The position numbers and the translations under genes were made by a program. Positions 5,737-47,484 of a stretch of 59,500 bases of DNA are shown here, one piece after another. Position 1 is the stretch's first letter, and each line of letters opens with the position of its first letter. Origin of the DNA: a virus; UHGV virus genome UHGV-0209830; one strand, given 5' to 3'. The notes below the pieces were generated by a model. It was not told the origin of the DNA, searched no databases, and saw only the letters and a program-made list of their open reading frames with translations.

Positions 5737-6444
5737 TCAGAATTTGATCACTCCACTCACAGCCCCCTTTAACGCGCTTGTAGCCATGCCAGCGGCACCG
5801 TTGACCAAAGCAGAAACACCTGAGCCTGCGGATGTGTATTTCTGGAAAGTGATTGGATATGACAAGAACTCTGACACCTGGTCTCGTGAGCGGGTGATTT
5901 CCCCAAGTTGAGTGGGGAATACGCGCATTTCCTCTTCCAGTTCTTTACCGCCATCCTGAGTTACCCGGTAGAGCCGGATCTTCATTAGATATTCAGGAGG
6001 AAGGTTTATTGTTCCGTCCGGGTTTGTCACGCGGGAACGACGCTCTTTGAACCAGTTCATGATCTTGCCGTCTTCGGTATCCCTTACGGTCATCGTGACT
6101 GGTCCGGCGGTGACGTAGGTTGGCTTGCTGAACTCTACGCTACCTATCACCTTGTTTTCTGTCTCGATATTTCCGCTGCTGTAGGTGATATCCTTCACGA
6201 ACATATCGAAACCGTTCAGACCGTCCACTTCAACCGTCCACTGCCATCCCTGGGCGTAACGAATACGCATAGCGGCAGCAACAATATTTTTCCCGTAGGC
6301 AATATCGCTGCTGTAGTTCCCACTTACCCCGCCGCCGGATATTGCTTTATCCAGAATGTCGCTAATGAGGTTGCTGGTGAATGATTTTGTGTTAAATGAC
6401 AGTGCGGTGGTCAACGTTCTGCCAACGCTGCTGAAAATACTCAC
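5737..6444 (-). CDS. Hypothetical tail-associated protein (235 aa)
   Basis: ORF track; co-oriented in tail gene block. Confidence 0.45.
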   Translation of the reverse strand: MSIFSSVGRTLTTALSFNTKSFTSNLISDILDKAISGGGVSGNYSSDIAYGKNIVAAAMRIRYAQGWQWTVEVDGLNGFDMFVKDITYSSGNIETENKVIGSVEFSKPTYVTAGPVTMTVRDTEDGKIMNWFKERRSRVTNPDGTINLPPEYLMKIRLYRVTQDGGKELEEEMRVFPTQLGEITRSRDQVSEFLSYPITFQKYTSAGSGVSALVNGAAGMATSALKGAVSGVIKF

Positions 6445-6459
6445 TCTGCGCCTCCAGCG

Positions 6460-7020
6460 TTAAAAAATGGTAGCCCCCGGAATAATCGCCCGGTTTGAGG
6501 ACATTTTTTCTTCAATCTCCTGAACGCGGGCATATAACGTGGCTTCATCAGGTAGATCTGAGTAGTCAAATTTCCCGTCGATGGACGCTCGACGCTGGCG
6601 GGCGACATTTCTGACATTGATAAGCGCCTCCAGGTATTCTTCCAACATACCAATGATTGCAGGCGGCACTTGCCATTCGTCCAGTTTTCTGTCGCGGAGA
6701 TTAACCAGATACAGCATCCGAAAAGGCCATCGTTCTGAACCTGTCAGCTCTAATTCAATAAAGCCGGATAGTTCATCCGAATAGACCAAAAGGCCATTGC
6801 TGTCGGTGACGTGAACAAGGGATAGATAATCTTCCGGCAATGGGATTGCGGTGCCACCAGCTTTTTCGAGTTTTAGTGTCTTCACTACCCCGGCCCTGTC
6901 CTGATACGTGGTCAGCGCTTTAATCAGGAAGGCTTTCAGCGTGTCTTCTTCACGCACAAGCAGTGGGTTAAATCGCGTTTTAACGCTTTCTAATAATTCG
7001 GTTGGTGTCATCGTAGCCAC
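6460..7020 (-). CDS. Hypothetical tail-associated protein (186 aa)
   Basis: ORF track; tail gene block. Confidence 0.45.
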   Translation of the reverse strand: MATMTPTELLESVKTRFNPLLVREEDTLKAFLIKALTTYQDRAGVVKTLKLEKAGGTAIPLPEDYLSLVHVTDSNGLLVYSDELSGFIELELTGSERWPFRMLYLVNLRDRKLDEWQVPPAIIGMLEEYLEALINVRNVARQRRASIDGKFDYSDLPDEATLYARVQEIEEKMSSNRAIIPGATIF

Positions 7021-7065
7021 AACTCAAATTCAGAGGAAATCCCGTCCGGAAGGACGGGAAAGAGA

Positions 7066-7557
7066 TCACTCTACCCAGTTGTAAACAATACGCAGGGAAG
7101 GTTTCACGACTGCCGTTACGTCTTCGGAAGAGAAGTCCACGGCGTCGGAATACACTTTGCAGTGAGAGTAGGTACGAATCAGACCTTTGTGGTTGCCGCT
7201 GTTGGATTCAGCCGCCGCCTGGAAGGTGATATCAAGATACTCTTTGCCATAAACCATTTGTTTAACGGCTGCGAGTACATCCCCTTCGATTGTCTCAGAG
7301 CAGGTGACCTGGAACTCACCAGAGTTGCGCAATGGCCCGTGTTGGTTGAACTTCATGCCGCCGGGGGCATAATCCTCCACGTCTTCGCGTGTCATTTCCG
7401 GTAACTGAGTGGTACGAACAAGTACAGACAGTTTTTCGTAACCTTTAATAGTCATCCAGAATTCTGAACCAATAAGTTTTTCGCCTGCTGCCAGGTTTTT
7501 ATTAAACCGGGATTTCAGGAAGGCGATATCGGCTTTTGTATTTGCAAAACCGGACAT
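7066..7557 (-). CDS. Tail tube protein (T4 gp19-like)
   Basis: 163 aa, same length and C-terminal ..YNWVE pattern as recalled T4 gp19 (..DYWE); immediately downstream of sheath-like gene. Confidence 0.55.
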   Translation of the reverse strand: MSGFANTKADIAFLKSRFNKNLAAGEKLIGSEFWMTIKGYEKLSVLVRTTQLPEMTREDVEDYAPGGMKFNQHGPLRNSGEFQVTCSETIEGDVLAAVKQMVYGKEYLDITFQAAAESNSGNHKGLIRTYSHCKVYSDAVDFSSEDVTAVVKPSLRIVYNWVE

Positions 7558-7565
7558 AATTACTC

Positions 7566-8156
7566 CTACACAAAAACAGATGATATGTTGCTACGGTTAA
7601 TCGAGGTGTTTCCGCTGCATTGCAGGGTTACCGTGTTATGAGTGAAATAGCCTTCCGGTGTGCGCGGGGCGTCCAGTTGGTAACTCACGCTTTTGATAAC
7701 AACGTCGGTAAGGGCTATGTTCCTACCTATGTTTAACGTTACTGTCTCCGGGCGACGACCGAATGGCGCTACATTGTTCAGTTCCGGCGATTCCATCTTC
7801 AGCAATGCTGTAATGGCTGCGTTCACTTCAAGTTGCGCGTTCGTTGTCGCCATGAAATCAATTACCAGATTAAATTCAGGCGGTTGCTGACCTTCCCAAA
7901 CAAGCATTGAGTTGAAGAGGGTTTTTGTTGTTACGCCGGTTGCGGTCTGAAGCGTATCTGCAAGAGAGCCAGCCGCAGCGCTAATACCACCAAGCAAACC
8001 TCCTACTGACTGGTTTTCAAATGGTGATTGCCACATTGATGATAGTTCTGCGGTAGATCCTTCACCGATATAACCGACGACCATATCCTCTGAAGAGAGG
8101 ATATAAACCTTCATTAACGGACTTATTCCGTCAGGCATTATCGCGCCGCAAATCAA
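7566..8156 (-). CDS. Hypothetical virion protein (196 aa)
   Basis: ORF track; between sheath and tube genes. Confidence 0.45.
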   Translation of the reverse strand: MICGAIMPDGISPLMKVYILSSEDMVVGYIGEGSTAELSSMWQSPFENQSVGGLLGGISAAAGSLADTLQTATGVTTKTLFNSMLVWEGQQPPEFNLVIDFMATTNAQLEVNAAITALLKMESPELNNVAPFGRRPETVTLNIGRNIALTDVVIKSVSYQLDAPRTPEGYFTHNTVTLQCSGNTSINRSNISSVFV

Positions 8157-8205
8157 ACGCTATTTCTCCCTGGTAGAGGCCACCTTTGCAGGCGGCCTAT
8201 GTCAC

Positions 8206-8946
8206 TTACAAACCGCGTTTTTTGCGAATGCGCATTGATTTTTTGCGGTTGATATTCGCTACGGATGTATGTGCTTTGCGGCGTGCTTTTTTCAGCGCCT
8301 GTTTTTGCAATGACGTCATGCGGCGAGGACGCGGGCGTTTACGGATGATGGTAACCTTGCCATCACGAACCACTTTTTTACGTACCGCTTCCAGCATTGC
8401 GCTATCACCACCAGCAACGGTGTAAATGGCAATAGCTGTTTCCATCATGTCGGTGTCGCTTTCGGAAAGAGCGTCAAAAACACGTTCGGCAGCTGAGTCA
8501 TCTTCATCGTCGATCATTTCGGTTACATCGTCCTGATCAGCGCCAAGCGCAACAGCTGCATCAGCAAGAGCTGCGAGAGCATCGTTATAAGCATCGATTT
8601 GTTCATCGGTGAAATCGGTGCCTTCATCGATATCAGCCAGGCCAGCCATAGTGATTGCTAATGCATCAAATGAGTCAGCCTCCGGATCACCATCTTCAAC
8701 CCAACCAGCAAGCATGGACGCTGCCAGGCTGCGCATATCACCTTGTGCACGGGATTCAACCGCTTCCATCATCGCGGTTTCAATGTCGTCTTTGGGCTTT
8801 GGTTGAGTGTCCTTTCCTTTCTGTCCTGCGCTTTCCAGCATGGCGTTATCATTATTGTCCTGAGTGGATTTATCACCGCTTTCAAAGCAGCCAGAACCGA
8901 AAATCGCACGCATAAACGGATCAGCAGTATAATTTTTCATATTCAA
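8206..8946 (-). CDS. Acidic hypothetical virion protein with basic C-terminal tail (246 aa)
   Basis: ORF track; very D/E-rich with KR-rich C-terminus. Confidence 0.45.
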   Translation of the reverse strand: MNMKNYTADPFMRAIFGSGCFESGDKSTQDNNDNAMLESAGQKGKDTQPKPKDDIETAMMEAVESRAQGDMRSLAASMLAGWVEDGDPEADSFDALAITMAGLADIDEGTDFTDEQIDAYNDALAALADAAVALGADQDDVTEMIDDEDDSAAERVFDALSESDTDMMETAIAIYTVAGGDSAMLEAVRKKVVRDGKVTIIRKRPRPRRMTSLQKQALKKARRKAHTSVANINRKKSMRIRKKRGL

Positions 8947-8983
8947 ACCTCTCTCCCCCGCATCATTTAGCGGGGGTTATAAA

Positions 8984-12963: not shown

Positions 12964-12980
12964 AATTTTCTAACACAAAA
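12964..12980. promoter_or_regulatory. Operator-like motif copy (attttctaacacaaaat)
   Basis: Member of the dispersed TGTGTTAGAAAAT-like family, directly upstream of ORF at 12991. Confidence 0.45.
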
Positions 12981-18680: not shown

Positions 18681-20342
18681 ATGAGTGAGGCAGAAGCCCG
18701 CCCGACTAACTTTATTCGTCAGATCATCGATGAAGATCTGGCAAGTGGTAAGCACACCACAGTACATACCCGTTTCCCGCCGGAACCGAATGGCTATCTG
18801 CATATTGGTCATGCGAAATCTATCTGCCTGAACTTCGGGATCGCCCAGGACTATAAAGGCCAGTGCAACCTGCGTTTCGACGACACTAACCCGGTAAAAG
18901 AAGATATCGAGTACGTCGAGTCGATTAAAAACGACGTTGAATGGTTAGGTTTTCACTGGTCTGGTAACGTCCGTTACTCCTCCGATTATTTTGATCAGCT
19001 CCACGCCTATGCTGTTGAACTGATCAACAAAGGCCTGGCGTATGTTGACGAACTGACGCCGGAACAGATCCGCGAATACCGCGGCACCCTGACGCAGCCG
19101 GGTAAAAACAGCCCGTACCGCGATCGCAGCGTTGAAGAGAACCTGGCGCTGTTCGAAAAAATGCGTGCCGGTGGTTTTGAAGAAGGTAAAGCCTGCCTGC
19201 GTGCGAAAATCGACATGGCGTCGCCGTTTATCGTGATGCGCGATCCGGTGCTGTACCGCATTAAGTTTGCTGAACACCACCAGACTGGCAACAAGTGGTG
19301 CATCTACCCGATGTACGACTTCACCCACTGCATCAGCGATGCGCTGGAAGGTATTACGCACTCTCTGTGTACGCTTGAGTTCCAGGACAACCGTCGCCTG
19401 TACGACTGGGTGCTGGACAACATCACCATTCCTGTTCACCCGCGCCAGTACGAATTCTCGCGCCTGAATCTGGAATACACTGTGATGTCCAAGCGTAAGC
19501 TGAACCTGCTGGTGACCGACAAGCACGTTGAAGGCTGGGATGACCCGCGTATGCCGACCATTTCCGGTCTGCGTCGTCGTGGTTACACTGCGGCTTCTAT
19601 TCGTGAGTTCTGCAAACGCATCGGCGTGACCAAGCAGGACAACACCATTGAGATGGCGTCGCTGGAATCCTGCATCCGTGAAGATCTCAACGAAAACGCC
19701 CCGCGCGCAATGGCGGTTATCGATCCGGTGAAACTGGTTATCGAAAACTATCAGGGCGAAGGTGAAATGGTCACCATGCCGAACCATCCGAACAAACCGG
19801 AAATGGGTAGCCGCCAGGTGCCGTTTAGCGGTGAGATTTGGATCGATCGCGCCGATTTCCGCGAAGAAGCTAACAAGCAGTACAAACGTCTGGTGCTGGG
19901 TAAAGAAGTGCGTCTGCGTAATGCTTACGTCATTAAGGCAGAACGCGTCGAGAAAGATGCCGAAGGTAATATCACCACCATCTTCTGTACTTATGACGCC
20001 GACACCTTAAGCAAAGATCCGGCTGATGGTCGTAAAGTCAAAGGTGTTATTCACTGGGTGAGCGCGGCACATGCGCTGCCGGTTGAAATCCGTTTGTATG
20101 ACCGTCTGTTCAGCGTGCCTAACCCAGGTGCTGCGGATGATTTCCTGTCGGTGATTAACCCGGAATCGCTGGTGATCAAACAGGGCTTTGCTGAACCGTC
20201 GCTGAAAGATGCGGTTGCGGGTAAAGCATTCCAGTTTGAGCGTGAAGGTTATTTCTGCCTCGACAGCCGCCATTCCACGGCGGAAAAACCGGTATTTAAC
20301 CGCACCGTTGGGCTGCGTGATACCTGGGCGAAGTTAGGTTAA
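18681..20342 (+). CDS. glnS: Glutaminyl-tRNA synthetase
   Basis: Near-identical to recalled E. coli GlnRS; HIGH motif and VMSKR present; own leader and terminator. Confidence 0.97.
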
Positions 20343-20365: not shown

Positions 20366-20393
20366 GTAAACGCCGCTACTGCGGCGTTTTTTA
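20366..20393. terminator. Bidirectional rho-independent terminator between glnS and dam
   Basis: aaacgccgc-tact-gcggcgttt hairpin flanked by A-run and T-run. Confidence 0.75.
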
Positions 20394-21296
20394 CTTCATT
20401 ATTGCAATTATATCGTTAGCAACTACACGTGTTGACGCCTTGCAGGAAACCGACCGTCTGGCTGCCATATGATGTACTTTAAACCCGTTTCCTTCATATA
20501 GTTCACGGATGCTTGGCGCACCACTATTTGTAATCACTACCTTAGCGCCGCGCTGGTGGGCTTCCACCAATAGAGATACCAGCCGTTTCTGTTCGTCGAA
20601 ACGGAAGCTATTTCCTGAATAACTGGTAAACCCTTCTGTATCCGGCAGCGGTTCATACGGCGGATCGCAAAAAATCACATCGCCTTCACCAGCCGCCTCG
20701 ATGACGCCAGCAAAGTCACCTGATACAAAGGACGTGTTTTTGAGTACGTCATCAGCCAAAAATGCCTCCATCTCTGCATGTGGGAAGTAGGGCGCTTTGT
20801 ATTTGCCATACCCCACGTTGAACTCGCCATTTTGGTTGTACCGCGTTACGCCATTAAAACAGTGCCGATTAAGGTACAAAAAGGCGGCAGCATGATGTAG
20901 CTGGTCATACTTTCCTCTGTTAAATGCCTCACGCACTTCGAGGTAACCGTCAGCGTTGTTGTAATTTTGGAAAAAACTATATGACAGCGTGACGAGCGAA
21001 TGTCCTTCTCGCTGCAATGTCTGATAGAAGTTAATCAGGTCACCGTTAATATCATTAAGCAGGTTGTGGCGAAATCCTGCATTCGTAAATACAGAACCGC
21101 CACCAACGAACGGTTCTATTAACCGCTTGCCGTGTGGTAGATGCTCAAGCACTGTAGGCAACTCTGAGAATTTACCGCCTACCCATTTGAAGATCGGACG
21201 CTCATATTCATCCGGAGTCCGAATGGTGCGCATATAGCTAATTTCAGCCATCGTATCCTGTTTTTCTATGGCTATGCTTGCTATAGATTTACTCAT
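20391..21296 (-). CDS. dam: DNA adenine (N6) methyltransferase, Dam family
   Basis: KWVGGK, FVGGGSVF and DPPY motifs; track ORF 20391..21392 trimmed to MSKS start just after the upstream stop. Confidence 0.9.
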   Translation of the reverse strand: MSKSIASIAIEKQDTMAEISYMRTIRTPDEYERPIFKWVGGKFSELPTVLEHLPHGKRLIEPFVGGGSVFTNAGFRHNLLNDINGDLINFYQTLQREGHSLVTLSYSFFQNYNNADGYLEVREAFNRGKYDQLHHAAAFLYLNRHCFNGVTRYNQNGEFNVGYGKYKAPYFPHAEMEAFLADDVLKNTSFVSGDFAGVIEAAGEGDVIFCDPPYEPLPDTEGFTSYSGNSFRFDEQKRLVSLLVEAHQRGAKVVITNSGAPSIRELYEGNGFKVHHMAARRSVSCKASTRVVANDIIAIMK

Positions 21297-21969
21297 AGAG
21301 CACCCCCTTATTCGCTTCGAAAACTGCCTTTGCGAATCCATGTGGAGTAGCACTTCGAAAATTAGCCCTGTCAGGCCCTGGTGGCGCGGCATGGATTCTG
21401 TTATCTGGCTTGCCTAATGATTCGTCCATTAGGGCATCAGGCATGACAAAGCCCTGGCCGCTCCAGAGGCATGTTTTTTTGGTGTAGTTATCTTCCTGAC
21501 AATATGCAGTGAAGAAGTAAGGGTGAAAGATGTGATCTGGCTTACGCCAGAATGTCGATATTTTGCTGACCGGATTTTCAATCATGTACGGACAACCGAT
21601 CATCTTTGCAATGTCATAACACTGCCAGACAACCTGCATTGCTTTGAACTGGAAAACCGGATCTTTATTAGCCTTGTCCGAAAACCAGCGCGCGCCGGAA
21701 ACAGCCAGGTCAGTACACGGTGGGAACCCGGCCAGAAACACGATGCGCTGCAAATTCTTACGGAGAAAAGCGTATACTTCATCGCTATCGATGATCGCAC
21801 TAATACGCGTCAGAACGGCACCTGATTGCATCCGCTCGTCACTGGTCGATAAGTGCTGTGGATCGACGATAGCGGCATCGACACCGTATTCCAGCCAGGG
21901 GGCAACCATTGCCCCCGTAAAATCACACAGACTCACAACAAGCGGTCGGTTATTATCGTTCTGCTTCAC
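21289..21969 (-). CDS. Cytosine-C5 methyltransferase-like protein
   Basis: GFPPC motif (C5-MTase motif IV-like); track start overlaps rdgC and is probably over-extended; start uncertain. Confidence 0.55.
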   Translation of the reverse strand: MKQNDNNRPLVVSLCDFTGAMVAPWLEYGVDAAIVDPQHLSTSDERMQSGAVLTRISAIIDSDEVYAFLRKNLQRIVFLAGFPPCTDLAVSGARWFSDKANKDPVFQFKAMQVVWQCYDIAKMIGCPYMIENPVSKISTFWRKPDHIFHPYFFTAYCQEDNYTKKTCLWSGQGFVMPDALMDESLGKPDNRIHAAPPGPDRANFRSATPHGFAKAVFEANKGVLYE

Positions 21970-22858
21970 CGCCAATAGCCTCCACCAGCGCGTTAAACAG
22001 TGCAGATAATTCGCCCGTAAAGAGCACGAAATCAGCATCAAATCGTTGTGCTACATCCTCCCGGTCGATATCGTCGTTCTGGTCATAGAGATCATCACAG
22101 AATGTCAGGGCTTTGATACTCATATCATCGTTGACTCTGAACGACGCGCGGTCCATCCAGTTAATTGCAACGGTCGTAGCTACTTTCCCCGCCTCAATGT
22201 GAGACATAATCTCGTCGGACTGTAGATCAACTTTGTTGCAGCGAACGGCACCACCATTATCGAGCAGACCCTTTAATGTGGCGTCTTCACCTGCTGTAAA
22301 TCCGGCAGGGAAGCTTTTTTTAAACCACTCGGTCATTGTAATTTCCAGCGGTTCGCGTGGTGTGAATGGAATGACAGGCAGGCTACCGAGCGATTTTCGC
22401 AATAAAGCCAGCTGGTCCTCTGCCTTTTTGGCGCTGCTTGCCTCAACGAATACCAGATGGTTGCTGCGGTCGATCAGGATTTTTGCGAGTGATTTTCTCG
22501 TGAAAGCACGAGGAAGAAGAGAGTGAAGCACTTCATCCTTCAGCGAATCTTTTTCGGTCTTCTTCAGCTTTCTGTCTTGCTCTTCTTCAAGTTTCAGGAT
22601 TTTTTTCTGTAACTCTTCTTTGAGTACTTGAGAAGGCAGGATTTTTTCCTCTCGTTTATGCTGCATCAGAAGAAAACCCTGGTATTCATGGGTGAGGTTG
22701 TCGCCAAGAATTGGGGTCCAACCAGCTTTAGCCATATCCTGAGAACCGCATGGGGTAAACACAAACTTGCTAAGGGCTGCATTTACTACTGCGGTATCCC
22801 AGTTAACTTCGCGTGAAAGACGATAGATGAAGATATTTTTGAAAGCGACTGATCTCAT
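21953..22858 (-). CDS. rdgC: Recombination-associated protein RdgC
   Basis: YRLSRE, FTPCGSQDMAK, KKTEKDSLKDEVLHSLLPRAF, SAKKAEDQLALLRKSLGSLPV match recalled E. coli RdgC. Confidence 0.9.
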   Translation of the reverse strand: MRSVAFKNIFIYRLSREVNWDTAVVNAALSKFVFTPCGSQDMAKAGWTPILGDNLTHEYQGFLLMQHKREEKILPSQVLKEELQKKILKLEEEQDRKLKKTEKDSLKDEVLHSLLPRAFTRKSLAKILIDRSNHLVFVEASSAKKAEDQLALLRKSLGSLPVIPFTPREPLEITMTEWFKKSFPAGFTAGEDATLKGLLDNGGAVRCNKVDLQSDEIMSHIEAGKVATTVAINWMDRASFRVNDDMSIKALTFCDDLYDQNDDIDREDVAQRFDADFVLFTGELSALFNALVEAIGGEAER

Positions 22859-22868
22859 TTCTCACCAT

Positions 22869-22904
22869 TTGTGTTAGAAAATACGCGTTAATTATCTAAC
22901 ACAA
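22869..22904. promoter_or_regulatory. Palindromic operator-like site (tgtgttagaaaat-N-attatctaacaca) upstream of rdgC operon
   Basis: Inverted pair of the dispersed motif. Confidence 0.5.
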
Positions 22905-22917
22905 ATGGGTGCATTTT

Positions 22918-23571
22918 CTATCCTTTCTTGAAATCGAAGTTGCCAGCAGTGGCCTGAAAGGTTCCCCCTGCCTTGAAAGCTATGTCCCCGTTAGCGGTGA
23001 CAGCAATATTTTCCCCATTAACATTGATGTTGTTGGCTGATTTGACGTTAACACTCCCTCCTGCATTCACGATTACATCAGCCGGACCAATGATATATAT
23101 CTGCCCGGACTCATTCATGCCAATCCTTGAGCCTGCTGCCGTATTGGCAATTTCATAGCCGCCACCAGCAGTTCGTACTTCAAGAATATTGTTGCGGTGA
23201 ATAACGAAGTCTTTCGTTGCTGAGATTTGGGGGCGGGGAGGTGCTCCATCTACTTCCGGCGGCGTCCAGCCGCTACCATTGCCTGATGCCTCCGGCGCGA
23301 CGTTTGGAACTCCGCCAGGCGCATCCTGAGCCGCGCCAACTATCATTGGGCGTCTGGTGTCTATTCGACCGTTAACATCTAAATAAGGAAACTCTACCCA
23401 GACCAGGTCACCTTTGACTGTAGGTACAAAAGCGTTCCCGATGGGTAACAGGTATTCCGCCCAGGGTAGATCGTCATCAGGAACGCCATTCCAGTCAGGT
23501 AAAACACGGACTTGAGCACGCATAAGCCCTGCCGGGTGCACAGTTCCAACAATTTGCGCTCTACGCTTCAT
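22918..23571 (-). CDS. Baseplate central spike protein (gpV-like)
   Basis: N-terminal pattern VGTVHP..RAQVRV...P...LPWA.....G.....F.P.VGDLVWVEF typical of baseplate assembly protein V; Gly-rich C-terminal repeats. Confidence 0.65.
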   Translation of the reverse strand: MKRRAQIVGTVHPAGLMRAQVRVLPDWNGVPDDDLPWAEYLLPIGNAFVPTVKGDLVWVEFPYLDVNGRIDTRRPMIVGAAQDAPGGVPNVAPEASGNGSGWTPPEVDGAPPRPQISATKDFVIHRNNILEVRTAGGGYEIANTAAGSRIGMNESGQIYIIGPADVIVNAGGSVNVKSANNINVNGENIAVTANGDIAFKAGGTFQATAGNFDFKKG

Positions 23572-26149: not shown

Positions 26150-26252
26150 TATCTGGAGATTGTGATTTCAATTCATATCCCAGCATGGGACTAAAGTGCT
26201 TTACATTGTCCCATATTGGGACTACTCTGCTTACAGAGAAAAGGAATCTGTG

Positions 26253-26555
26253 ATGAAAATAATTTCGATAAAAACACTAAGGGATTTCTGGGCGAAGAAT
26301 CCCGATGCAGAACAGCCATTAAAGGCATGGGTTGATGAAGCAACAAAGGCTGACTGGAAAAATCCGGCTGAAATCAAAGAACAGTACCGGACAGCCAGCA
26401 TCCTTAAAAACAGGCGCGTGGTGTTCAATATTAAGGGAAATGATTACAGGTTAATTGTCGCAATTGCTTATCAGCGAGGATGGATGTTCGTTAAGTTTAT
26501 TGGAACACATAAGGAATACGATGCCATTGAAGCGGATACAATAGAACTGGAGTAA
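26253..26555 (+). CDS. higB: HigB-family mRNA interferase toxin
   Basis: VFNIKGNDYRLIVAI...FIGTHKEYDAI matches recalled HigB pattern; ATG at 26253 with RBS aaggaa. Confidence 0.8.
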   Translation: MKIISIKTLRDFWAKNPDAEQPLKAWVDEATKADWKNPAEIKEQYRTASILKNRRVVFNIKGNDYRLIVAIAYQRGWMFVKFIGTHKEYDAIEADTIELE

Positions 26556-26558
26556 ATC

Positions 26559-26918
26559 ATGAACATTAAACCTATCCGTACAGAACAAGATTATGAGGCC
26601 GCACTGCGTGCGGTCGAACCGATGTTCGATAACGAACCGGAAATGAACACACCGGAAGGCGATTTCTTTGAAATAATGTGCCTGCTCATTGAAGAGTACG
26701 AGAAAAAGCATTACCCAATTGAGCCACCATCACCTATTGAAGCCATTAAATTCCGTATGGAACAGCAAGGGCTGACCGTGAAGGATCTGGAACCGGCGAT
26801 TGGTAAGTCAAATCGTGTTTACGAAGTGCTAAATGGGACACGAAATTTAACGTTACCTATGATTCGTCGTTTACATTCCCAGTTTGGCATTCCTCTTGAA
26901 AGCCTGGTTGGTGTATGA
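26559..26918 (+). CDS. higA: HigA antitoxin (HTH, XRE-like)
   Basis: Immediately downstream of higB; C-terminal HTH segment. Confidence 0.75.
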   Translation: MNIKPIRTEQDYEAALRAVEPMFDNEPEMNTPEGDFFEIMCLLIEEYEKKHYPIEPPSPIEAIKFRMEQQGLTVKDLEPAIGKSNRVYEVLNGTRNLTLPMIRRLHSQFGIPLESLVGV

Positions 26919-26952
26919 GTTTGGCGGTCTGTATGACCGCCTTTGTTGTCAA

Positions 26953-28149
26953 TCAAGAACCTTTCTTCACGTACTCCATAAACATTTTTTCAGCTTGCTC
27001 AGGTGACGTTCCTGCCATGACCAGTGCATCAATGAACGCCTGCTTCTTCAGTGCGAACTGATCGGCAAGGCGTTGCTGAAGTTCCTTATTTTTCTGTTTC
27101 TCACGTTGCAAGGCCGCTTCTTTTGCAGCCGCCCGTTTTTTCTGTGCGTCTGACAACTTTCTGGCCCTGGTCAGCTGGTCACGTAGCTTGTCAATCTTCC
27201 CGTTGTCCTTTGCCAGTTTTGTACTTAAAGCGGCCTGGCGCTTCTGATAGAGCCTCCATTCGCGTTTGGCGGCTTCAACGTTCGTTTTACTGCTACGATT
27301 GCGATTAAACTCCTTCTCGTCTTCTTTTGAGAAGTGTTTAGTTGTACGGCGGCGATCGTCACCAAATGCAATTTGCGTTGCAGCCTTTTGTAGCGCACGA
27401 GCAATACTCATTTGCCAACTGGCGGACTGTAACCGCGTCATTGAGTGGATCACGTGTTTACAGGCGACGCCTTGCAGCTTCGGGTTGCGAACTTTTGGAT
27501 AGGCGTATTCTTTTGGCGGTGCCAGGGCAAAGTTACCCGCAGTGGCGATGTAACGATACCAGTATTGATGACGACCACAGTCACAATCGAAAGACACTCG
27601 CCCGGCGCACAGTGATTTAGTGATTTTGAGAGCTGATTTATCGTCTTCTGCGATGTCATCAACCATCTGATCCCATTCTTCAAAGCGTATCCGGACGATA
27701 TGGTGCTGGTGGACGGATATATCCGATGCTTCTACGCGGATATTAATCACATTGTGGCGAAGAGATACGGGGGTAGCTCTTTTGATACCAGATCCGTCAT
27801 CCACGGCGTTATTTGCACGCTTAATATCGATTGCCTGGCTGGATGCCACCAGCTGGGCGTATGTGATGCCAGCCGTCTTGCTGTCATATTTTTCGCGCGT
27901 TTTACTCCGTAGCTTTTCGAAACCTTTCAGGTCGTCTCGCGTGAAGAACGTGCCGCCTTTTTTCTTCCCTAACTTGAGAATATCTTCGGCGGATTTGTTC
28001 CTCAGTCTACCTGGCGTCAGCGTCCGGTGAGCTTGTCGGCGCTTACGGGTTTGTTCTTTCCTGATAATCTCGAATAAACGCGTGAAGTCCTTAGAGGACA
28101 GGCCGTCAGTGATATAGCGCCCGTCCTGTTTTTTCAGGAAATCAGGCAT
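26953..28149 (-). CDS. SWIM-type zinc-finger protein with coiled-coil C-terminus (398 aa)
   Basis: CDCGRHQYW...(32)...CKH pattern; KR/Q-rich coiled coil; function unknown. Confidence 0.5.
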   Translation of the reverse strand: MPDFLKKQDGRYITDGLSSKDFTRLFEIIRKEQTRKRRQAHRTLTPGRLRNKSAEDILKLGKKKGGTFFTRDDLKGFEKLRSKTREKYDSKTAGITYAQLVASSQAIDIKRANNAVDDGSGIKRATPVSLRHNVINIRVEASDISVHQHHIVRIRFEEWDQMVDDIAEDDKSALKITKSLCAGRVSFDCDCGRHQYWYRYIATAGNFALAPPKEYAYPKVRNPKLQGVACKHVIHSMTRLQSASWQMSIARALQKAATQIAFGDDRRRTTKHFSKEDEKEFNRNRSSKTNVEAAKREWRLYQKRQAALSTKLAKDNGKIDKLRDQLTRARKLSDAQKKRAAAKEAALQREKQKNKELQQRLADQFALKKQAFIDALVMAGTSPEQAEKMFMEYVKKGS

Positions 28150-29721: not shown

Positions 29722-30345
29722 ATGAAGGATGGTGTAGTGAAGTTAAGGGCTTTAGGGGCCGCGCTCGCGGCTATGTTGGGATGCGTATCTGCTAATACTG
29801 CCAATGCAACTGCGTTACCTGCACAATTCAGGGCAGGGCAGCAGGTTATGAATAACGCTGGTGGAGATCATTCACAAGCGGCCATTATGGACTTTTGCAA
29901 GAGGGAGGGCATTCCATTACGGCCTGTTGGAACTCAGTTTATTGGTAAAACTGACTTTTGCGTTTTTGCATATACAGCATATCTGACGGACAAAGCTATA
30001 ACAAAAACAGGTTATTCAACCAAAGATACTCTTTCCAGATTAAGTCAGGGATGGCAGCAATTCGAAGTGTATCGCCAGCAAGGATTAGGTGAGTTATTGC
30101 AACCTCTTTTTATGCTTGCGTTGGTGCCAGAGGGGCAGCAATTTTTGGTTAAAAAGGGAATGCTTCGCCAAAGTGATATTGCCGGGTTCGATAGCATGAT
30201 GGCTTATGAGCGCAAACTAACCGAGCAGCGAAATAAAAAACCATCTGCTTCATGTGTGCAAAGTAAAACAGCAGAATACAGTGCAGTAGCCGGGCCTTTA
30301 GCCAAACAAATGGCAGAGCAATGGTGTAAAAAATACGGGCAATAA
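29722..30345 (+). CDS. Secreted/periplasmic hypothetical protein (207 aa)
   Basis: N-terminal signal peptide. Confidence 0.5.
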   Translation: MKDGVVKLRALGAALAAMLGCVSANTANATALPAQFRAGQQVMNNAGGDHSQAAIMDFCKREGIPLRPVGTQFIGKTDFCVFAYTAYLTDKAITKTGYSTKDTLSRLSQGWQQFEVYRQQGLGELLQPLFMLALVPEGQQFLVKKGMLRQSDIAGFDSMMAYERKLTEQRNKKPSASCVQSKTAEYSAVAGPLAKQMAEQWCKKYGQ

Positions 30346-30365
30346 GTTACGCAGCGGAGGCAGAA

Positions 30366-30758
30366 TTGAAAAGATTGGCTATTGCTTTACTGGCGTCTTT
30401 CCCTTTGATCGCGAGCGCCGGAAATTTACAAGTTAAGTGCGGTCGGTTTGATATAAAAATCTATCCAGATGCCATATTTCTGAATGGGAATAAGGTTGAT
30501 AACGCACACCGAAAAACTGAATCTGACGTAATGAGCTATGTGTTCCAGGAGTATGCGGAGATGGGGGGAACTTACACGCTGTACTCGCTGGATGTTCCTT
30601 CTCGCGGTGATATGACATTATCCCATCAATGGCAGAACGCCGATGGCGAAGCTCTGCGCGAGGTTAAAACAGAAAAATGTGGCACTTTCCATTCTTTTAA
30701 AGGGAAAGCGCCAAATGTTAAATCTGTGCTTGAAAAACAGCGCGCAGGTGAGCTTTAA
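30366..30758 (+). CDS. Secreted/periplasmic hypothetical protein (130 aa)
   Basis: Signal peptide MKRLAIALLASFPLIASA. Confidence 0.5.
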   Translation: MKRLAIALLASFPLIASAGNLQVKCGRFDIKIYPDAIFLNGNKVDNAHRKTESDVMSYVFQEYAEMGGTYTLYSLDVPSRGDMTLSHQWQNADGEALREVKTEKCGTFHSFKGKAPNVKSVLEKQRAGEL

Positions 30759-31145
30759 ACACCTTTAACCACGGAGATGCCGTTCCCTGCACGATAGCGG
30801 CGGGGAACGGAATTCTCCATCAGGTCACGAATTACTCCCGCCTCATGTAGTTCCACTGTTTCCCAGTATCTGTTTGTCACCAATTACGCCCCGTTCCGCC
30901 AGGGGAAGGTATGAACGAGCTTCTGCTTCGGTTGCAGCCATGACGCAGATATACAGGTGTTTTTGGCAGGAATAGAAACGCCAGATAAATTCAGAATGAG
31001 TTGGGGTGGGGATAGTAGCGATATTGGCAGCCTCCTTTGACTAAGTTAAGGAGCTACCGCGTGAGGTTCCAATTCCGGCACCCGTTTTTCTAAGGTGCCG
31101 TAGAAATATACCCCACGATAAGGCCAGGGCGCAAAAGTCAGTATT

Positions 31146-32264: not shown

Positions 32265-32298
32265 ATGTTAGAAAATCAAAATTGATTTTCTAACACAA
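32265..32298. promoter_or_regulatory. Near-perfect palindromic operator-like site (gttagaaaatcaa-N-ttgattttctaac) in divergent promoter region
   Basis: Best palindromic copy of the dispersed motif. Confidence 0.55.
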
Positions 32299-32464
32299 AA
32301 TGAAGATACTTTTTTCAGACGCTATATCAGGAGGTCATGATGCTTGTCGCAATTAGTGCAATCCACCAGCAATCCGGTACAGAAATTGGGTTGCTATATG
32401 TCCTGTTTTTCACTGTCCTGGCGTTGTTTGAGCTGGGCATTGAACTCTTTGCTCTCATCAACTT

Positions 32465-33417: not shown

Positions 33418-33763
33418 AGGTTTAACGCCCGCACAACTGGCAGAGCGTAACGCTGAATTACTCAGGATTACCCAGGAAAAAGCCTTCCACATACTCGAAC
33501 GATTAGAGACGCTCTCTACGGAGGAGGAGATATCCCCGGAGATGCTGGTTGAGTGCAGCCGTGTGATATTGCGTCGCAAGAACGACATCGCGCGGCTGAC
33601 ATCTGGCGCACTATCCGTATCAGCCAGTCCAACGCTTTATTGCAGCTTCTGCAACAAATCCCAGCACACCGTTAAAAAGTTAATTGCCGGGGACAACGCT
33701 TTCATATGCAACGAGTGCGTGAAAGATTGCAACAACATTATCCAGGAAGATCAAAGGGAATAA
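33407..33763 (+). CDS. Protein with C-terminal ClpX-type C4 zinc-binding domain
   Basis: [38 protein letters not shown] closely matches recalled E. coli ClpX N-terminal ZBD. Confidence 0.7.
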
Positions 33764-33765
33764 GC

Positions 33766-34461
33766 ATGAAATTTTCCAAATTTTCTGAGTTGGTGAATCG
33801 TATTTTGTCCAACAACCACAGCCATCGTCGCGATATGGATGTAACGATCGTTGTTCATTCGCCTGGCAGCATTGGTTCAACACCTTCAGTTGAGGTTCAG
33901 TCAATTCACGCTGGTTTTGATTGGGATTCCGGGAAAGTGCTGATTTTCCCAGCACAGCCACTGACCACGCTAACACCAGAACAGATTACTGATATTACTG
34001 ATAGTGTGCGCAAAGGTCAGTCCTGGCACGCATATCAGGAATACAAGAAGCATAAAGAGCAGTTGGAAAAATTATCGATTGAACTTGATGCCGCAAAACA
34101 GCGCATTGCAGAGCTGGAGGGTAATTGCGCGGCGCTGGCGGCGGAGAATGCGGGAATAAAGTCTGCAATTCCAGAATCACGGGATATTGAGGATGACAAT
34201 GACAATATGGATGACGTATCTCTCGCGGAAGACTTCGGGTTCAATCATGCAATAGAACGGATGAGGAGACAGATACCTGAAACGCCAACCACTGATGCTT
34301 TCCTGGCTGAAGTCCGGGCGCAGGGATTGGAGATGTTTGCACAGAAATGTAACTCAAAATCCGAACAGTCGCTTGCATCTGATATACGCGATAACTGGAA
34401 ACTACTCGGTGAACATGCAACTGACTTTGCCGATGAGCTTCGAAGAGGAAGCAGCAAGTGA
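33766..34461 (+). CDS. Hypothetical protein with coiled coil (about 231 aa)
   Basis: Track ORF 33706..34461 trimmed to MKFSKF; shares ETPTTDAFLAE motif with ORF 37345..38043. Confidence 0.45.
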   Translation: MKFSKFSELVNRILSNNHSHRRDMDVTIVVHSPGSIGSTPSVEVQSIHAGFDWDSGKVLIFPAQPLTTLTPEQITDITDSVRKGQSWHAYQEYKKHKEQLEKLSIELDAAKQRIAELEGNCAALAAENAGIKSAIPESRDIEDDNDNMDDVSLAEDFGFNHAIERMRRQIPETPTTDAFLAEVRAQGLEMFAQKCNSKSEQSLASDIRDNWKLLGEHATDFADELRRGSSK

Positions 34462-37358: not shown

Positions 37359-38043
37359 CTATCAAGAACTGCGCGAGGCGGCGGAACAGGCAACGCAAGA
37401 TGAATGGGTAGCATATATTTTGCCGGGTCATAACGGCATTTATCCTGCGCGCACGTCTGAGGGTAGGCATTGCGGATACTTTATTGACTGGCCTGGCATT
37501 GATGGACAAAGGAATGCTGGTGCTAATGCCCGTTATATCGCGGCTATCCCACCAAAAGTTGCGCTGGCACTCCTGGGCGAAATTAAGCGCCTGGAGGACA
37601 CAAATATTGATGCTATGTGCCGAATAGCACCGCTTGAGACTAAGCTCGCGGCTCTGGTGGCAGAGAACGCCGGGCTGAAACTCGCAATGGCTGTAACTCT
37701 TAATCATGTGTCGGTCACGGATGCAGGGCAGGCCGGAGTTGCTGCAATGATAATCAACGATGCTCTGCACCACAGCGAAACCCCAGCCACCGATGCTTTT
37801 CTGGCTGAAGGGAAGACTGAAGCACGCAAGGAAGGCGCTTATTTTGTGGCGAACAGAATGTTGGCAGCCTGGAAAGCTGGTTTTATTGATGATACTGCGA
37901 AGAACGCCGCGGATATTGCCCGGATGATCCTTACCTCTACTGAGTTTATGGCTAATGCGCCGGAAGGCGATTTTGATCGCTCATTCTCTGATGGCGTTCT
38001 CGAAGATATCGCCGAACAGCTTCGTAAAGGAGTCATCCAATGA
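37345..38043 (+). CDS. Ea22/Ead-like protein
   Basis: N-terminus MIKINYQELREAAEQA and coiled coil; paralogous to next ORF. Confidence 0.4.
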   Translation: MIKINYQELREAAEQATQDEWVAYILPGHNGIYPARTSEGRHCGYFIDWPGIDGQRNAGANARYIAAIPPKVALALLGEIKRLEDTNIDAMCRIAPLETKLAALVAENAGLKLAMAVTLNHVSVTDAGQAGVAAMIINDALHHSETPATDAFLAEGKTEARKEGAYFVANRMLAAWKAGFIDDTAKNAADIARMILTSTEFMANAPEGDFDRSFSDGVLEDIAEQLRKGVIQ

Positions 38044-38753: not shown

Positions 38754-39116
38754 TGCGTGTGGCATGTATCGGCTTGTTACCGTACCCGACTCGTTTTTGG
38801 GCTTCTGCGCTAATTGCAAAGCCGCATGTCCTGATGGCTGACAACATCATCCCGGCACCAAAGCGCCGCCATACCGGTATTGCATCGGCACGACGAGCAG
38901 CAAAGAAACGCAGGAGAGCAAAACGATGAAAAACCGTAAAGCAAAGATTCTGTTAGTTCGTAGAAACGCTCCTGGCGTCTGGCAGTGGGTGAGACTCAGC
39001 AACCGACGGGCGGGGTTAATGAAACATTACGGGATGATGGATTGTGGTTTTTGCAAAAAGCCCAGCGCGGCGCAAAACCGCTGGAAAAACCACTTGCGTA
39101 CTAAAGGAGAGTGATA

Positions 39117-39325
39117 TGGCTATTGCCGCAAGTTACACCATGCATCTCTATTGTGACTGCCGCCAGTGTACGGAAGGTGTATATCCAGTGCCAGACTTCG
39201 GAGAGTATATCGGCACGTCATGGGCTGGTTGTGCAAAAGAGGCGCGTAAGGATGGCTGGCGAATAAGCAAAGACAAAACACGTGCTTTTGCGCCTGGGCA
39301 TAAAGTTTTGAGGAGTAACAAATGA
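39117..39325 (+). CDS. Small Cys-containing hypothetical protein
   Basis: Internal ATG MAIAASYT of track ORF 39044..39325. Confidence 0.3.
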
Positions 39326-46443: not shown

Positions 46444-47484
46444 ATGATGAGTATGAAGTCGATCGAGAAAGAGTACAAACGGTTCCTGCAAACCGCAGAA
46501 CGGTGGAAAGAGCTGGTGGTCGCAAACTCTGTTTTCCATGATACCAGTTATGCTGGTGAGGAATTCCGCCATGTTGCATTAACGCATGACCAAAACATAT
46601 TAGAAGAAGCTGAAAAATGTCTTGCTGAATGGAAAGCCTTCGTTGACATGTGCCGCGATGCCGACGGCAAAGCGTCGAACATTGTTGAGTCCGTATATTC
46701 TCCGATCCCATTCATCATTGAGGACACCAATCAAAGCACGCATGTCGTTGTGCAAAGCGCTACAACAACACGTGCATTTACACGTGAACAATTGCTAAAA
46801 AAATACGACAAAATCATAAAGAAAAGCCTGAAAAATAGGGTTTTTTCTCAAATCGTAGGTGCTCTTGAAGAAGAACAGCGCTTCTTTGAAGCTGAGCCTG
46901 AAGGCGAGATCTACCGGGCGCGTAAAGAGGCATATACAGATGTTGTGCTGACAACAAACATCGAAGGCAGTAATGCCCTTTCTCGCTTTAGAGTTGGCGC
47001 ACATGGCGCATTGGTTTTCGCAAGACTACCGAAGACAACGATCCCCGTTGTCAATAATGTTGGTGAACGCCGGAGCATTACAATTTATTCTGGCGTCGAA
47101 TCGGTACCTTGCAGCCTTCTCGGCGATTTTAACTTATATCGTGTTCGTGACCTGGAAAAACACCAGCCAAGCTACGTTGCGAAGTCGTATATCTTAAGGA
47201 ACATCGATATTCGCAATGAAAGCCTTAAGCAGAAATCCGCTAAGATGCTGGAGGATGCCGATCCGGCTATTCGCCATATCATTGAGCGTAAGATACGCAC
47301 ATCACGTGAAGCAATGGCAAGGCTGGATAAAATGGATCTGGAATTGTTAGACGTAATGATGGCCTCTGGAGACGACCTGACCGGCATTAAACTGAATGAA
47401 GCTCGTAAAAAATACGGCAAAGCAATCGAAGAACGTTACGGATACACATTCCCCCAAACGCAGTACGCCGCGAAGCTCTGGTAA
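46444..47484 (+). CDS. Hypothetical protein (346 aa); candidate C1-type repressor by position only
   Basis: Between lox/cre and pacB, convergent with pacB, operator-like motif upstream; no sequence-level confirmation. Confidence 0.3.
   Translation: MMSMKSIEKEYKRFLQTAERWKELVVANSVFHDTSYAGEEFRHVALTHDQNILEEAEKCLAEWKAFVDMCRDADGKASNIVESVYSPIPFIIEDTNQSTHVVVQSATTTRAFTREQLLKKYDKIIKKSLKNRVFSQIVGALEEEQRFFEAEPEGEIYRARKEAYTDVVLTTNIEGSNALSRFRVGAHGALVFARLPKTTIPVVNNVGERRSITIYSGVESVPCSLLGDFNLYRVRDLEKHQPSYVAKSYILRNIDIRNESLKQKSAKMLEDADPAIRHIIERKIRTSREAMARLDKMDLELLDVMMASGDDLTGIKLNEARKKYGKAIEERYGYTFPQTQYAAKLW

Follow-up and report, generated by a model that had tools for sequence, protein, structure and literature searches.

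A D6-like phage-plasmid carries the P1/D6-type methylation operon of rdgC, a small dcm-like gene and dam

The closest described counterparts of the locus presented here are found in phages P1 and D6. The gene order in P1 is Odmt (the C1 operator Op68), the promoter Pdmt, uhr, hrdC and dmt. The Dmt protein comprises 754 amino acids and carries a PF00145 domain in its N-terminal part, which provides the C5-methyltransferase function, and a PF02086 domain in its C-terminal part, which provides the Dam function. Lytic growth of P1 requires neither hrdC nor dmt, and so any phenotype associated with these genes may be conditional. In D6 (MF356679; Gilcrease & Casjens 2018), orf63 through orf65 are the same three genes as those reported here, in the same order and with the same glnS neighbour. 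Their annotations describe a Dam protein ‘similar to C-term half of P1 dmt only’, a ‘putative DNA-cytosine methylase’, and a protein of the ‘RdgC family, similar to P1 hrdC’.

The stretch of DNA that was analysed (hereafter the window) is the 59,500-nucleotide virus genome UHGV-0209830. It represents a D6-like plasmid prophage of the P1 family, with 98.8% identity to phage D6 and 99.8% identity to E. coli plasmids, and all 101 of the places where it matches E. coli genomes are on plasmids. Relative to D6, the window diverges by about 1% and is a variant D6-like plasmid in which some segments elsewhere are not collinear. The operon runs on the minus strand from position 22858 to position 20391 and encodes, in order, an RdgC homologue, a 226-amino-acid Dcm-like protein, and Dam. 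A preliminary description made from the nucleotide sequence had listed these three genes in this order, and all three are present where it placed them. A palindrome precedes the operon and a bidirectional terminator follows it. The rdgC and dcm genes overlap by 17 nucleotides, and dcm and dam overlap by 8 nucleotides (ATGAGTAA), which fits a single transcription and translation unit. At the distal end, a hairpin resembling a bidirectional intrinsic terminator (20368..20389, both strands) has a 9-bp stem with six G-C pairs and T-rich tails, and is located between the stop codon of the convergent glnS gene (20342, plus strand) and that of dam (20391).

The methylation operon of P1/D6-type phage-plasmids is already known, and this rdgC-dcm-dam module is an instance of it. 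The module is real but ordinary, and has already been annotated in D6. In both P1 and the window, the operon begins with a C1-type operator and a promoter, and its genes supply an RdgC homologue, then a C5-methyltransferase function and lastly a Dam function. However, the window operon lacks the uhr gene that is present in P1, and its operator appears to be bivalent (palindromic) rather than monovalent. Also unlike its P1 counterpart, it follows the gene 5 baseplate operon immediately and adjoins glnS. The most conspicuous difference is the one highlighted in the preliminary description, namely that separate genes occur here in place of the P1 fusion. The C5 function of the window is assigned to a separate 226-amino-acid protein of another family, whereas in P1 it resides in a PF00145 domain that is fused to Dam. 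The further claim that the presence of RdgC on a phage-plasmid is unusual does not hold, because P1 has the same operon (C1 operator-uhr-hrdC-dmt). Specifically, P1 hrdC is located immediately upstream of dmt under a C1 operator and its product is 52% identical to the RdgC homologue of the window, whose relatives are encoded on 231 viral contigs. The association with a methylase is more restricted. A methylase gene immediately downstream of rdgC is found only at P1/D6-type loci and is absent at the other ~55 rdgC loci.

The palindrome upstream of rdgC consists of two arms of 18 nucleotides each (22865-22882 and 22891-22908) that are 94% complementary and are separated by 8 nucleotides. Each arm includes a candidate operator 16-mer. 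The proximal 16-mer (ATTTGTGTTAGAAAAT, 22867..22882) is flanked by the -10 element and the ribosome-binding site of rdgC, and the distal, inverted 16-mer (ATTTGTGTTAGATAAT on the minus strand, 22891..22906) holds the -10-like sequence GATAAT. The 11-mer half-site occurs eight times in the window versus 1.05 occurrences expected, a count that was reached in none of 100 shuffles. Likewise, nine 16-mers with three or fewer mismatches are present, versus a mean of 0.56 in shuffles. In D6, the 16-mer sites are found upstream of c1, lpa, icd/ant, hrdC and ref, all homologues of P1 genes under C1 control. Moreover, the position and orientation of the proximal half-site are conserved in a diverged relative (L012). 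The operator-like character attributed to this palindrome at the outset is thus borne out by both the enrichment of the half-site and its conservation.

Copies of the 16-mer are also found ahead of the c1, lpa and ref homologues, and the palindrome is therefore probably a bivalent operator to which C1 would bind. The c1 repressor gene of the window (46447..47481, plus strand) was located by tblastn, and its product is 99.4% identical to the C1 protein of D6, whose annotation reads ‘similar to P1 gene C1’. An operator-like 16-mer is found just upstream of this gene at 46414-46429, and its product is presumably the trans-acting regulator of the operator pair. A by-eye alignment with P1 Odmt indicates that about 10 of 16 positions agree with the P1 operator (consensus ATTGCTCTAATAAATTT). 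The distal 16-mer also overlaps a sigma-70-like promoter candidate (22891..22920, minus strand) composed of TAGAAA, an 18-nucleotide spacer, and GATAAT. The -35 element and the stop codon of the upstream gene, the gene 5 (baseplate) homologue, overlap. With 9 of 12 matching positions, the promoter match is weak and is not significant alone, as the region contains three promoter-like sites versus 4.7 expected. An equivalent arrangement, read by eye as TAGAAA-17-AATAAT, is found at the same place in L012.

The same palindrome is predicted to form a stable RNA hairpin (-22.1 kcal/mol, z=-5.3), and the gene 5 homologue ends 10 nucleotides before it. Both features would be compatible with a hairpin or terminator that mainly serves to separate the tail/baseplate operon from rdgC, rather than with a repressor operator. 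However, the stem is not followed by a U-tract, and the half-site is also found as single copies at other intergenic sites by the c1, lpa and ref homologues. Furthermore, L012 retains only one half-site and thus cannot form the hairpin, and P1 carries a C1 operator at the equivalent place. We consider it unlikely that hairpin formation is the main role of this element. In addition to its probable function as a C1 operator, the palindrome may act post-transcriptionally because of the strong RNA hairpin that is predicted.

The first gene of the operon (21953..22858, minus strand) corresponds to D6_65 and encodes a 301-amino-acid homologue of RdgC and P1 HrdC. E. coli RdgC is a recombination-associated DNA-binding protein that inhibits RecA in vitro. 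Like this protein, the window homologue matches PF04381 over its full length (E=2.8e-102; residues 6-298 versus profile positions 3-298 of 298), and it passes the NCBIfam RdgC model NF001462 with a score of 382.5 versus a cutoff of 330. Its score against NF001460, the equivalog model for the enterobacterial chromosomal protein, is 406.5 and falls below the cutoff of 501. Unlike E. coli RdgC, the window protein is phage/plasmid-borne and its gene appears to be co-transcribed with methyltransferase genes. Modulation of RecA by this phage-plasmid protein is a reasonable proposal by analogy with E. coli RdgC.

The last gene, dam (20391..21296, minus strand), corresponds to D6_63 and encodes a 301-amino-acid protein of the Dam family (D12 class) of N6-adenine DNA methyltransferases. 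It matches PF02086 (E=1.7e-56; 192.2 bits versus a cutoff of 22) and TIGR00571 (247.7 versus a cutoff of 114.85). Two motifs can be read directly from the protein sequence, namely the FxGxG motif for AdoMet (F63-V-G-G-G67) and the catalytic DPPY motif (D211-P-P-Y214). The start of dam, which overlaps the stop of dcm, has AAGGGGG as its Shine-Dalgarno sequence. At 69% identity to residues 478-753 of P1 Dmt, the protein is by sequence the orthologue of the C-terminal half of Dmt, and this level of identity to the Dam half of the P1 protein points to a GATC-specific m6A activity.

The RefSeq annotation of near-identical plasmids suggests that dam or dcm, or both, might be pseudogenes. In NZ_CP020051, for example, PGAP describes dam as ‘incomplete; missing N-terminus’ and predicts a Dcm-like protein of only 206 amino acids. 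In the window, neither ORF is disrupted or truncated when compared with its family profile, and no frameshifts or premature stop codons were seen. The short start chosen by PGAP for dcm removes L14, C15, D16, T18 and G19, each with a conservation of 90% or more across 40 close relatives. In addition, the GTG start of the longer reading frame is also used by an alternative allele of the locus (see below). A pseudogene status for either gene is thus very improbable. The ‘partial’ flag on dam is probably explained by an N-terminal Dam leader of ~25 residues. The PGAP calls in these plasmids are therefore misleading, given that the small dcm loses a conserved N-terminal motif and that both genes are intact.

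The middle gene (21289..21969, minus strand; D6_64) begins with a GTG start codon preceded by a GGAGG Shine-Dalgarno sequence and encodes the 226-amino-acid Dcm-like protein. This small Dcm belongs to phrog_757 (E=4.3e-78 over residues 2-224), and its family has 1591 phage records, with 1592 representatives at 50% clustering. The protein has no Pfam match at E<=10, including to PF00145, and no NCBIfam match at E<=1. Among 86 diverse relatives, PF00145 is the sole recurrent Pfam family, with six sub-threshold matches of which the best has E=0.0039. Searches of PDB sequences with phmmer and with two family profiles yielded nothing significant; profile A1 returned ornithine decarboxylase as noise, and profile A2 returned DNMT2 at a non-significant E=0.38. 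When A1 was compared by hhalign with a thin alignment of canonical C5 enzymes, only motif IV was aligned and the probability was 0.5%. That alignment consisted of N-terminal variants of P1 Dmt and E. coli Dcm, since further homologues were only close relatives of P1 Dmt.

The absence of catalytic motifs had been named beforehand as the finding that would overturn the Dcm assignment. This did not occur, because Cys85 (PPC) and Glu131 (ENP) are invariant in the 86 diverse relatives, as are D36 and K164. In motif IV, Cys85 is embedded in FPPC and aligns to the PCQ of both P1 Dmt and DNMT2. Motif VI is represented by E131-N-P, in which N132 is at least 90% conserved among the same relatives. The candidate for motif I takes the variant form LCDFTGAM, with a single conserved glycine (Gly19), to which motif I of DNMT2 aligns in the non-significant profile match noted above, and D36 is a candidate for the acidic residue of motif II. 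At the position of motif VIII, the sequence YTKKTCLW places Lys164-Lys165 where canonical enzymes have arginines. Only ~12-30 poorly conserved residues are present between this KK motif and a C-terminal RSATPxGFA helix, and therefore the protein has no separate target-recognition domain.

Canonical C5-methyltransferases of the PF00145 family, such as DNMT3A, DNMT1, E. coli Dcm, and the N-terminal part of P1 Dmt, have a Rossmann-type methyltransferase fold in common. The small Dcm resembles these enzymes in its predicted fold, its motif IV Pro-Cys nucleophile and its motif VI Glu-Asn-x. It differs in being ~100 or more residues shorter, in lacking a recognisable target-recognition domain, in its variant motifs I and VIII, and in scoring below every Pfam threshold. 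An AlphaFold2 model of the small Dcm (pLDDT 85.4) has DNMT3A/3B, DNMT1 and ZMET2 as its top Foldseek matches in the PDB (E~1e-4, probability 1.0, query-normalised TM ~0.5). In BFVD, the model matches phage proteins annotated as ‘DNA-cytosine methylase’ and canonical viral C5-methyltransferases.

A family member with experimental data is encoded by the T1-like phage K42 (KarlJaspers-like, Drexlerviridae), whose Dcm is reported to trigger the retron Ec86/Eco1 (bioRxiv 10.1101/2023.08.16.553469; Cell Rep 2024;43:114857). As measured by LC-MS, K42 Dcm raised the level of 5mC in Ec86 msDNA in a manner dependent on its catalytic residues, and its CCWGG specificity was assumed from host Dcm and is supported only by msDNA mutants (bioRxiv 10.1101/2023.08.16.553469). 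Residues C85, E131, K164 and K165 of the small Dcm align to C82, E128, K175 and K176 of the K42 protein. This comparison was made via a 236-amino-acid homologue from the Warwickvirus ‘tuinn’, which has the same residues at the same positions. The K42 and D6-type proteins thus represent one family of about 226-236 amino acids with a DNMT3A-like fold and with the Cys (FPPC), Glu (IENP) and Lys-Lys (KKTC) motifs in common. Despite this relationship, the D6-type protein is only about 37% identical to the family members from T1-like phages, which carry an insertion of ~14 residues before the KK motif that the D6-type protein lacks. The genetic settings also differ, as K42 is a virulent siphovirus whose dcm forms no operon with rdgC or dam.

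Some characteristics of the small Dcm would be equally consistent with a protein that is inactive, that acts on RNA or tRNA like DNMT2, or that makes another modification. These include its lack of PF00145 or NCBIfam matches and of a target-recognition domain, its variant motif I (DFTG), and the fact that the sole PDB sequence match of its family profile, albeit non-significant, is DNMT2. However, the Cys and Glu residues required for C5 chemistry are invariant, the top fold matches are to DNA C5-methyltransferases, and the K42 family member increased 5mC in DNA through these very residues. We consider it improbable that the protein is something other than a DNA 5mC methyltransferase. The conserved residues, the predicted fold, and the activity of K42 Dcm together suggest that the small Dcm makes 5-methylcytosine. 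The observed-to-expected ratios of CCWGG (0.94) and GATC (0.75) are like those of other 4-mer palindromes and are uninformative regarding methylase specificity.

The locus as a whole is likely to be a D6-type version of the P1 ‘uhr-hrdC-dmt’ early operon that is controlled by C1, with three coupled genes and a shared terminator. According to this model, a sigma-70-type promoter overlapped by two inverted operators for the D6 C1 repressor would drive expression of three translationally coupled genes, encoding the RdgC homologue, the small Dcm-like C5-cytosine methyltransferase, and the GATC-modifying Dam. The transcription unit would end at the bidirectional terminator that it has in common with glnS. 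In a lysogen, C1 would presumably repress the promoter, and the operon would be expressed upon induction or infection. Late in the cycle, transcription continuing from the tail/baseplate operon upstream may contribute to its expression. By analogy with P1, methylation of GATC by Dam might contribute to packaging-site function and to protection from restriction. The small Dcm would add 5-methylcytosine, perhaps at CCWGG-like sites, and thereby protect phage DNA in hosts that lack matching methylation. RdgC would bind DNA and probably damp RecA-dependent reactions. The membership of the small Dcm in the K42 Dcm family also leads to the prediction that D6-like phage-plasmids should be sensed by the retron Eco1/Ec86.

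Comparison of the window with three related elements (L019, L027 and L032) reveals an exchangeable cassette (21222..21952, minus strand) that comprises the small dcm and the first ~25 codons of dam. These elements match the window at 93-97% identity as far as position 21953 and at 98% from position 21221 on; the intervening segment is unrelated. In some near-identical D6-like elements, the cassette is replaced by a P1-type C5-methyltransferase domain that is fused in frame to Dam. A common ribosome-binding site and GTG start serve both alleles, which also agree in their first four codons, and the small-Dcm allele keeps its own stop codon. Exchange of the C5 module between related D6-like elements, with exact boundaries, is evident from these alignments and is one small new detail provided by this analysis.

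The cassette comparison also bears on the origin of the separate genes, which the preliminary description implicitly treated as a split of the P1 fusion. Such a fission, which would make the 226-amino-acid gene a decayed relic of the C5 domain of P1, would explain why dcm and dam match the two halves of P1 Dmt in order and position, and why both alleles begin at a common start codon. However, this idea is rejected because BLASTP found no similarity of the 226-amino-acid protein to P1 Dmt (E=2.9). Moreover, the small Dcm is a member of phrog_757, an independent phage family of large size whose full-length members are strongly conserved, and the sharp cassette boundaries within sequences of 93-98% identity indicate cassette exchange rather than decay. 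Derivation of the small Dcm from the C5 half of Dmt is thus effectively refuted, and we assign it almost no probability. The part of the implied relationship that stands is that of Dam, which is orthologous to its counterpart in Dmt.

With two unrelated C5 modules being swapped ahead of a Dam core that is itself conserved, the locus is a good illustration of modular exchange among phage-plasmids, and such exchange could affect host range. More tentatively, the slot between rdgC and the Dam core might be a site for hot-swappable methylase cassettes in the P1/D6 population, such that the allele present alters which cytosines are methylated and which defences are met. We regard this as possible but not as the expected outcome, and the functional effect of allele choice is speculation. 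If true, the cytosines methylated would differ between alleles, and allele choice would alter the defences that are evaded or tripped, including EcoRII-type restriction, methylation-dependent type IV systems, and the retron Eco1/Ec86.

A fusion was also encountered in metagenomic sequence (P0121). The ORF located upstream of it does not encode RdgC, and this fusion therefore lies outside the conserved rdgC context.

The operon occupies the minus strand of the window and comprises three genes, as judged from Pfam, TIGR00571 and reading-frame analysis, in agreement with the preliminary description of separate dcm-like and dam genes downstream of rdgC. The rdgC-like gene (22858..21953) encodes a 301-aa protein with a match to PF04381 (E=2.8e-102). 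It is followed by the open reading frame for a 226-aa Dcm-like protein (small Dcm; 21969..21289), which begins with a GTG codon preceded by GGAGG, and then by dam (21296..20391; 301 aa), whose product matches PF02086 (E=1.7e-56), scores above the TIGR00571 cutoff, and carries FVGGG and DPPY motifs. Adjacent genes overlap by 17 nt (rdgC/dcm) and 8 nt (dcm/dam; ATGAGTAA), as is common among translationally coupled genes. A hairpin resembling a bidirectional terminator (20368-20389, both strands) lies between dam and the convergent glnS (18681-20342, plus strand), a full-length glutaminyl-tRNA synthetase gene whose 553-aa product contains four GlnRS Pfam domains and is probably nearly identical to E. 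coli GlnS. This gene (D6_62) is conserved cargo in all D6-like genomes (PMC6799933).

Over its 2.6 kb, the region shares 98.8% identity with Escherichia phage D6 (MF356679), a plasmid prophage related to P1, and as much as 99.8% with E. coli plasmids of ~90 kb. Each of the 101 places in complete E. coli genomes that match this region is on a plasmid. The window and D6 are collinear across the operon, and the D6 c1 repressor gene is also present (46447-47481). The D6 GenBank record describes orf63 as 'site-specific DNA-adenine methylase; similar to C-term half of P1 dmt only' and orf64 as 'putative DNA-cytosine methylase', and it assigns orf65 to the RdgC family with similarity to P1 hrdC. The rdgC-dcm-dam feature is real and for the most part was read correctly, but it has been annotated before in D6, and only three points are added here: the precise family assignment of the Dcm-like protein, a likely bivalent C1 operator, and an allelic cassette exchange.

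Both methylase reading frames look intact despite the RefSeq/PGAP calls for a near-identical plasmid (NZ_CP020051). In that record, dam (6049-6867; window 20391-21296) is flagged as a partial pseudogene 'missing N-terminus', and the Dcm-like gene (6947-7567; window 21289-21969) is started at Met21, which drops a conserved LCDxTG motif. The upstream GTG start, a point earlier marked for checking, is supported because it is conserved and because the alternative allele described below uses the same start.

In P1, the C1 operator Odmt (Op68) and the promoter Pdmt are followed by uhr, hrdC and dmt. The 754-aa Dmt protein is indeed a fusion, as the preliminary description stated, with a PF00145 C5-methyltransferase domain at its N terminus and a PF02086 Dam domain at its C terminus. 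Window Dam shares 69% identity with residues 478-753 of Dmt. The preliminary description regarded RdgC on a phage-plasmid as unusual, which is incorrect: P1 hrdC sits before dmt and its product is 52% identical to window RdgC, and therefore RdgC is the norm in this group. RdgC relatives are encoded on 231 viral contigs. Among the viral-contig rdgC loci compared, a methylase gene directly after rdgC was not found outside the P1/D6 group. Another group of phage contigs, of ~40-45 kb and with RdgC ~55% identical (L043-L052 and L062), has its Dam gene 3-4 kb upstream of rdgC and in opposite orientation, not immediately behind it. In a CRISPRi screen of P1, hrdC and dmt were non-essential for lytic growth (PMC10695390).

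The idea that the small Dcm is a split-off P1 C5 domain was rejected (BLASTP against P1 Dmt, E=2.9). Pfam and NCBIfam searches with this protein yielded zero matches; it does match phrog_757 'DNA methyltransferase' (4.3e-78). Clustering at 90% identity divides the family into at least 7924 clusters, and at 50% there are 1592 representatives. A tblastn search recovers members from 1591 phage records, among them T1-like Drexlerviridae, Dhillonvirus, rV5-like phages, Klebsiella siphoviruses, and phages of Campylobacter and Flavobacterium. Lambdoid prophages carry members as well, in their nin region. Alignment of 86 diverse representatives, which addresses the earlier concern over catalytic motifs, reveals invariant D36, C85 (FPPC), E131 (ENP), P133, P150, K164, T166 and W169. 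An AlphaFold2 model (pLDDT 85.4, pTM 0.85) consists of a Rossmann-type core only, with a low-confidence loop after PPC. By fold, its closest PDB entries are methyltransferase domains, those of DNMT3A, DNMT3B, DNMT1 and ZMET2 (E~1e-4, probability 1.0); in BFVD it matches 'DNA-cytosine methylase' proteins of phages and, at greater distance, canonical C5 enzymes of viruses. Sequence links to PF00145 are weak but consistent: it is the sole recurring Pfam family among the relatives (6 of 86, best E=0.0039), and DNMT2 is the sole match of the family profile to PDB sequences, with an alignment that spans motifs I to IV (E=0.38). Small Dcm domains are also found joined to an HNH endonuclease domain (P0195, 348 aa) and inside uncultured-phage proteins of 1126 and 1397 aa (BFVD A0A6J5SE15 and A0A6J5NPY6), one of which is named 'Helicase/UvrB N-terminal'.

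A functional precedent comes from phage K42, a KarlJaspers-like member of the Drexlerviridae studied by Wang et al. (bioRxiv 10.1101/2023.08.16.553469; cited as Cell Rep 2024;43:114857 in PMC12673091). In that preprint, K42 Dcm triggers retron Ec86 and raises 5mC in its msDNA as measured by LC-MS, and escape mutants have lost the 711-bp dcm gene. The protein was modelled on DNMT3A with catalytic residues C82/E128/K175/K176; its CCWGG specificity was assumed from host Dcm and backed only by msDNA mutants. In the 711-bp ORF of the K42-related Warwickvirus 'tuinn', C82 (FPPC), E128 (IENP) and K175-K176 (FKKTC) align with C85, E131, K164 and K165 of the window protein. This correspondence places the small Dcm, at ~37% identity, in a family with reported 5mC activity. 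In the BASEL study, such methylases show no simple link to restriction resistance (PMC8594841).

Comparison of the 25 viral-contig loci with RdgC at least 60% identical to that of the window reveals two alleles at one slot, with small Dcm and a separate Dam in 18 and a canonical C5 domain fused to Dam in seven. Three fused-allele contigs (L019, L027 and L032) share 93-97% nucleotide identity with the window from the tail genes to 21953, the end of rdgC, and 98% identity again from 21221 (~codon 26 of dam) through glnS. Only the interval between differs (21952-21222; 731 bp in the window, 1309 bp in L019), and the L019 C5 segment is 92% identical to P1 dmt. Both alleles start at an identical GGAGG-N9-GTG and agree in their first four codons (VKQN); the right-hand junction falls at RTPDEYERP, the start of the Dam core. 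Because the exchanged segment is sharply bounded within near-identical backbones, the separate and fused states reflect exchange of two very distantly related C5 modules before one conserved Dam core. Gene fission as the origin of separate dcm and dam was rejected, given that the differing segment is flanked by 93-98% identity.

Fusion to Dam has arisen independently for both kinds of C5 module, since a metagenomic 563-aa protein (P0121; 218-1909 of contig L011) naturally joins a small Dcm, 65% identical to that of the window, to a Dam domain (49%). The ORF upstream of it in L011 is not RdgC. In addition, a 473-aa protein with PF00145 only (P0271), which matches the C5 half of P1 Dmt at 99% identity, represents 123 E. 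coli member sequences; the canonical C5 domain is therefore also called as a separate protein in some P1-type plasmids.

The operator-like palindrome noted before the operon is an inverted repeat with 18-nt arms at 22865-22882 and 22891-22908. It follows the stop codon that ends the gene 5 (baseplate) homologue and precedes the start of rdgC. Each arm contains one copy of the 16-mer ATTTGTGTTAGAAAAT, which occurs nine times in the window with up to three mismatches, compared with a mean of 0.56 in shuffles; its 11-mer core occurs eight times (1.05 expected). In D6, copies of the 16-mer closely precede c1 (194) and also lie ahead of lpa (4627) and icd/ant (21266), between gene 23 and orf52 (54207), and between ref and orf88 (76636). 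Two more (64111 and 64135) are paired in front of the hrdC homologue, a place equivalent to that of Odmt in the P1 record. Several of the neighbouring genes are homologues of C1-controlled P1 genes. Aligned by eye, the 16-mer agrees with the P1 operator at ~10 of 16 positions. A -10-like GATAAT lies within the distal arm, and TAGAAA is found 18 nt upstream, overlapping the gene 5 stop codon. The diverged relative L012 (small Dcm 63% identical) retains the promoter, as TAGAAA-17-AATAAT, and of the two half-sites only the proximal one (ATTTTCTAACACAGAAT). From the repetition of the 16-mer, its placement in D6 and the conservation of one half-site in L012, the palindrome is likely a bivalent C1-type operator overlapping the promoter. 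In read-through RNA it would form a strong hairpin (-22.1 kcal/mol, z=-5.3), and a U-tract is absent from the window sequence there.

The analysis shows which genes are present, that they are coupled, their orthology, the fold and conserved catalytic residues, how the operator is repeated and placed, and the exchange of cassettes. The regulatory scheme is a proposal: C1 would repress the operon promoter in the lysogen, and upon induction or infection the operon would produce RdgC, small Dcm and Dam. Dam would methylate GATC; in P1, pac cleavage depends on Dam methylation, which also gives protection from restriction. Small Dcm would make 5mC that protects from restriction. By analogy with E. 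coli RdgC, a RecA inhibitor in vitro, the window RdgC would bind DNA and limit RecA reactions.

Further operator-like 16-mers lie at 12965-12980, 32285-32300, 45002-45017, 46414-46429, 50847-50862 and 58051-58066. An inverted partner (TGTTAGAAAATCAATTTTGATTTTCTAACA) stands a few bases from the copy at 32285; that at 46414 precedes c1 by 18 nt, and that at 50847 is the counterpart of the D6 site upstream of lpa. The diverged D6-like L012 retains the rdgC, small dcm and dam trio together with StbA/StbB; it has an AbiH-family gene upstream and a 371-aa unannotated gene downstream of dam in place of glnS (noted segments, 467-1456 and 7837-8952). Window segments without a megablast match to D6 (≥400 bp), at 26168-26961, 29773-31070, 33456-34455, 37365-39827 and 52384-53612, are places where the window plasmid departs from D6 through insertion or replacement.
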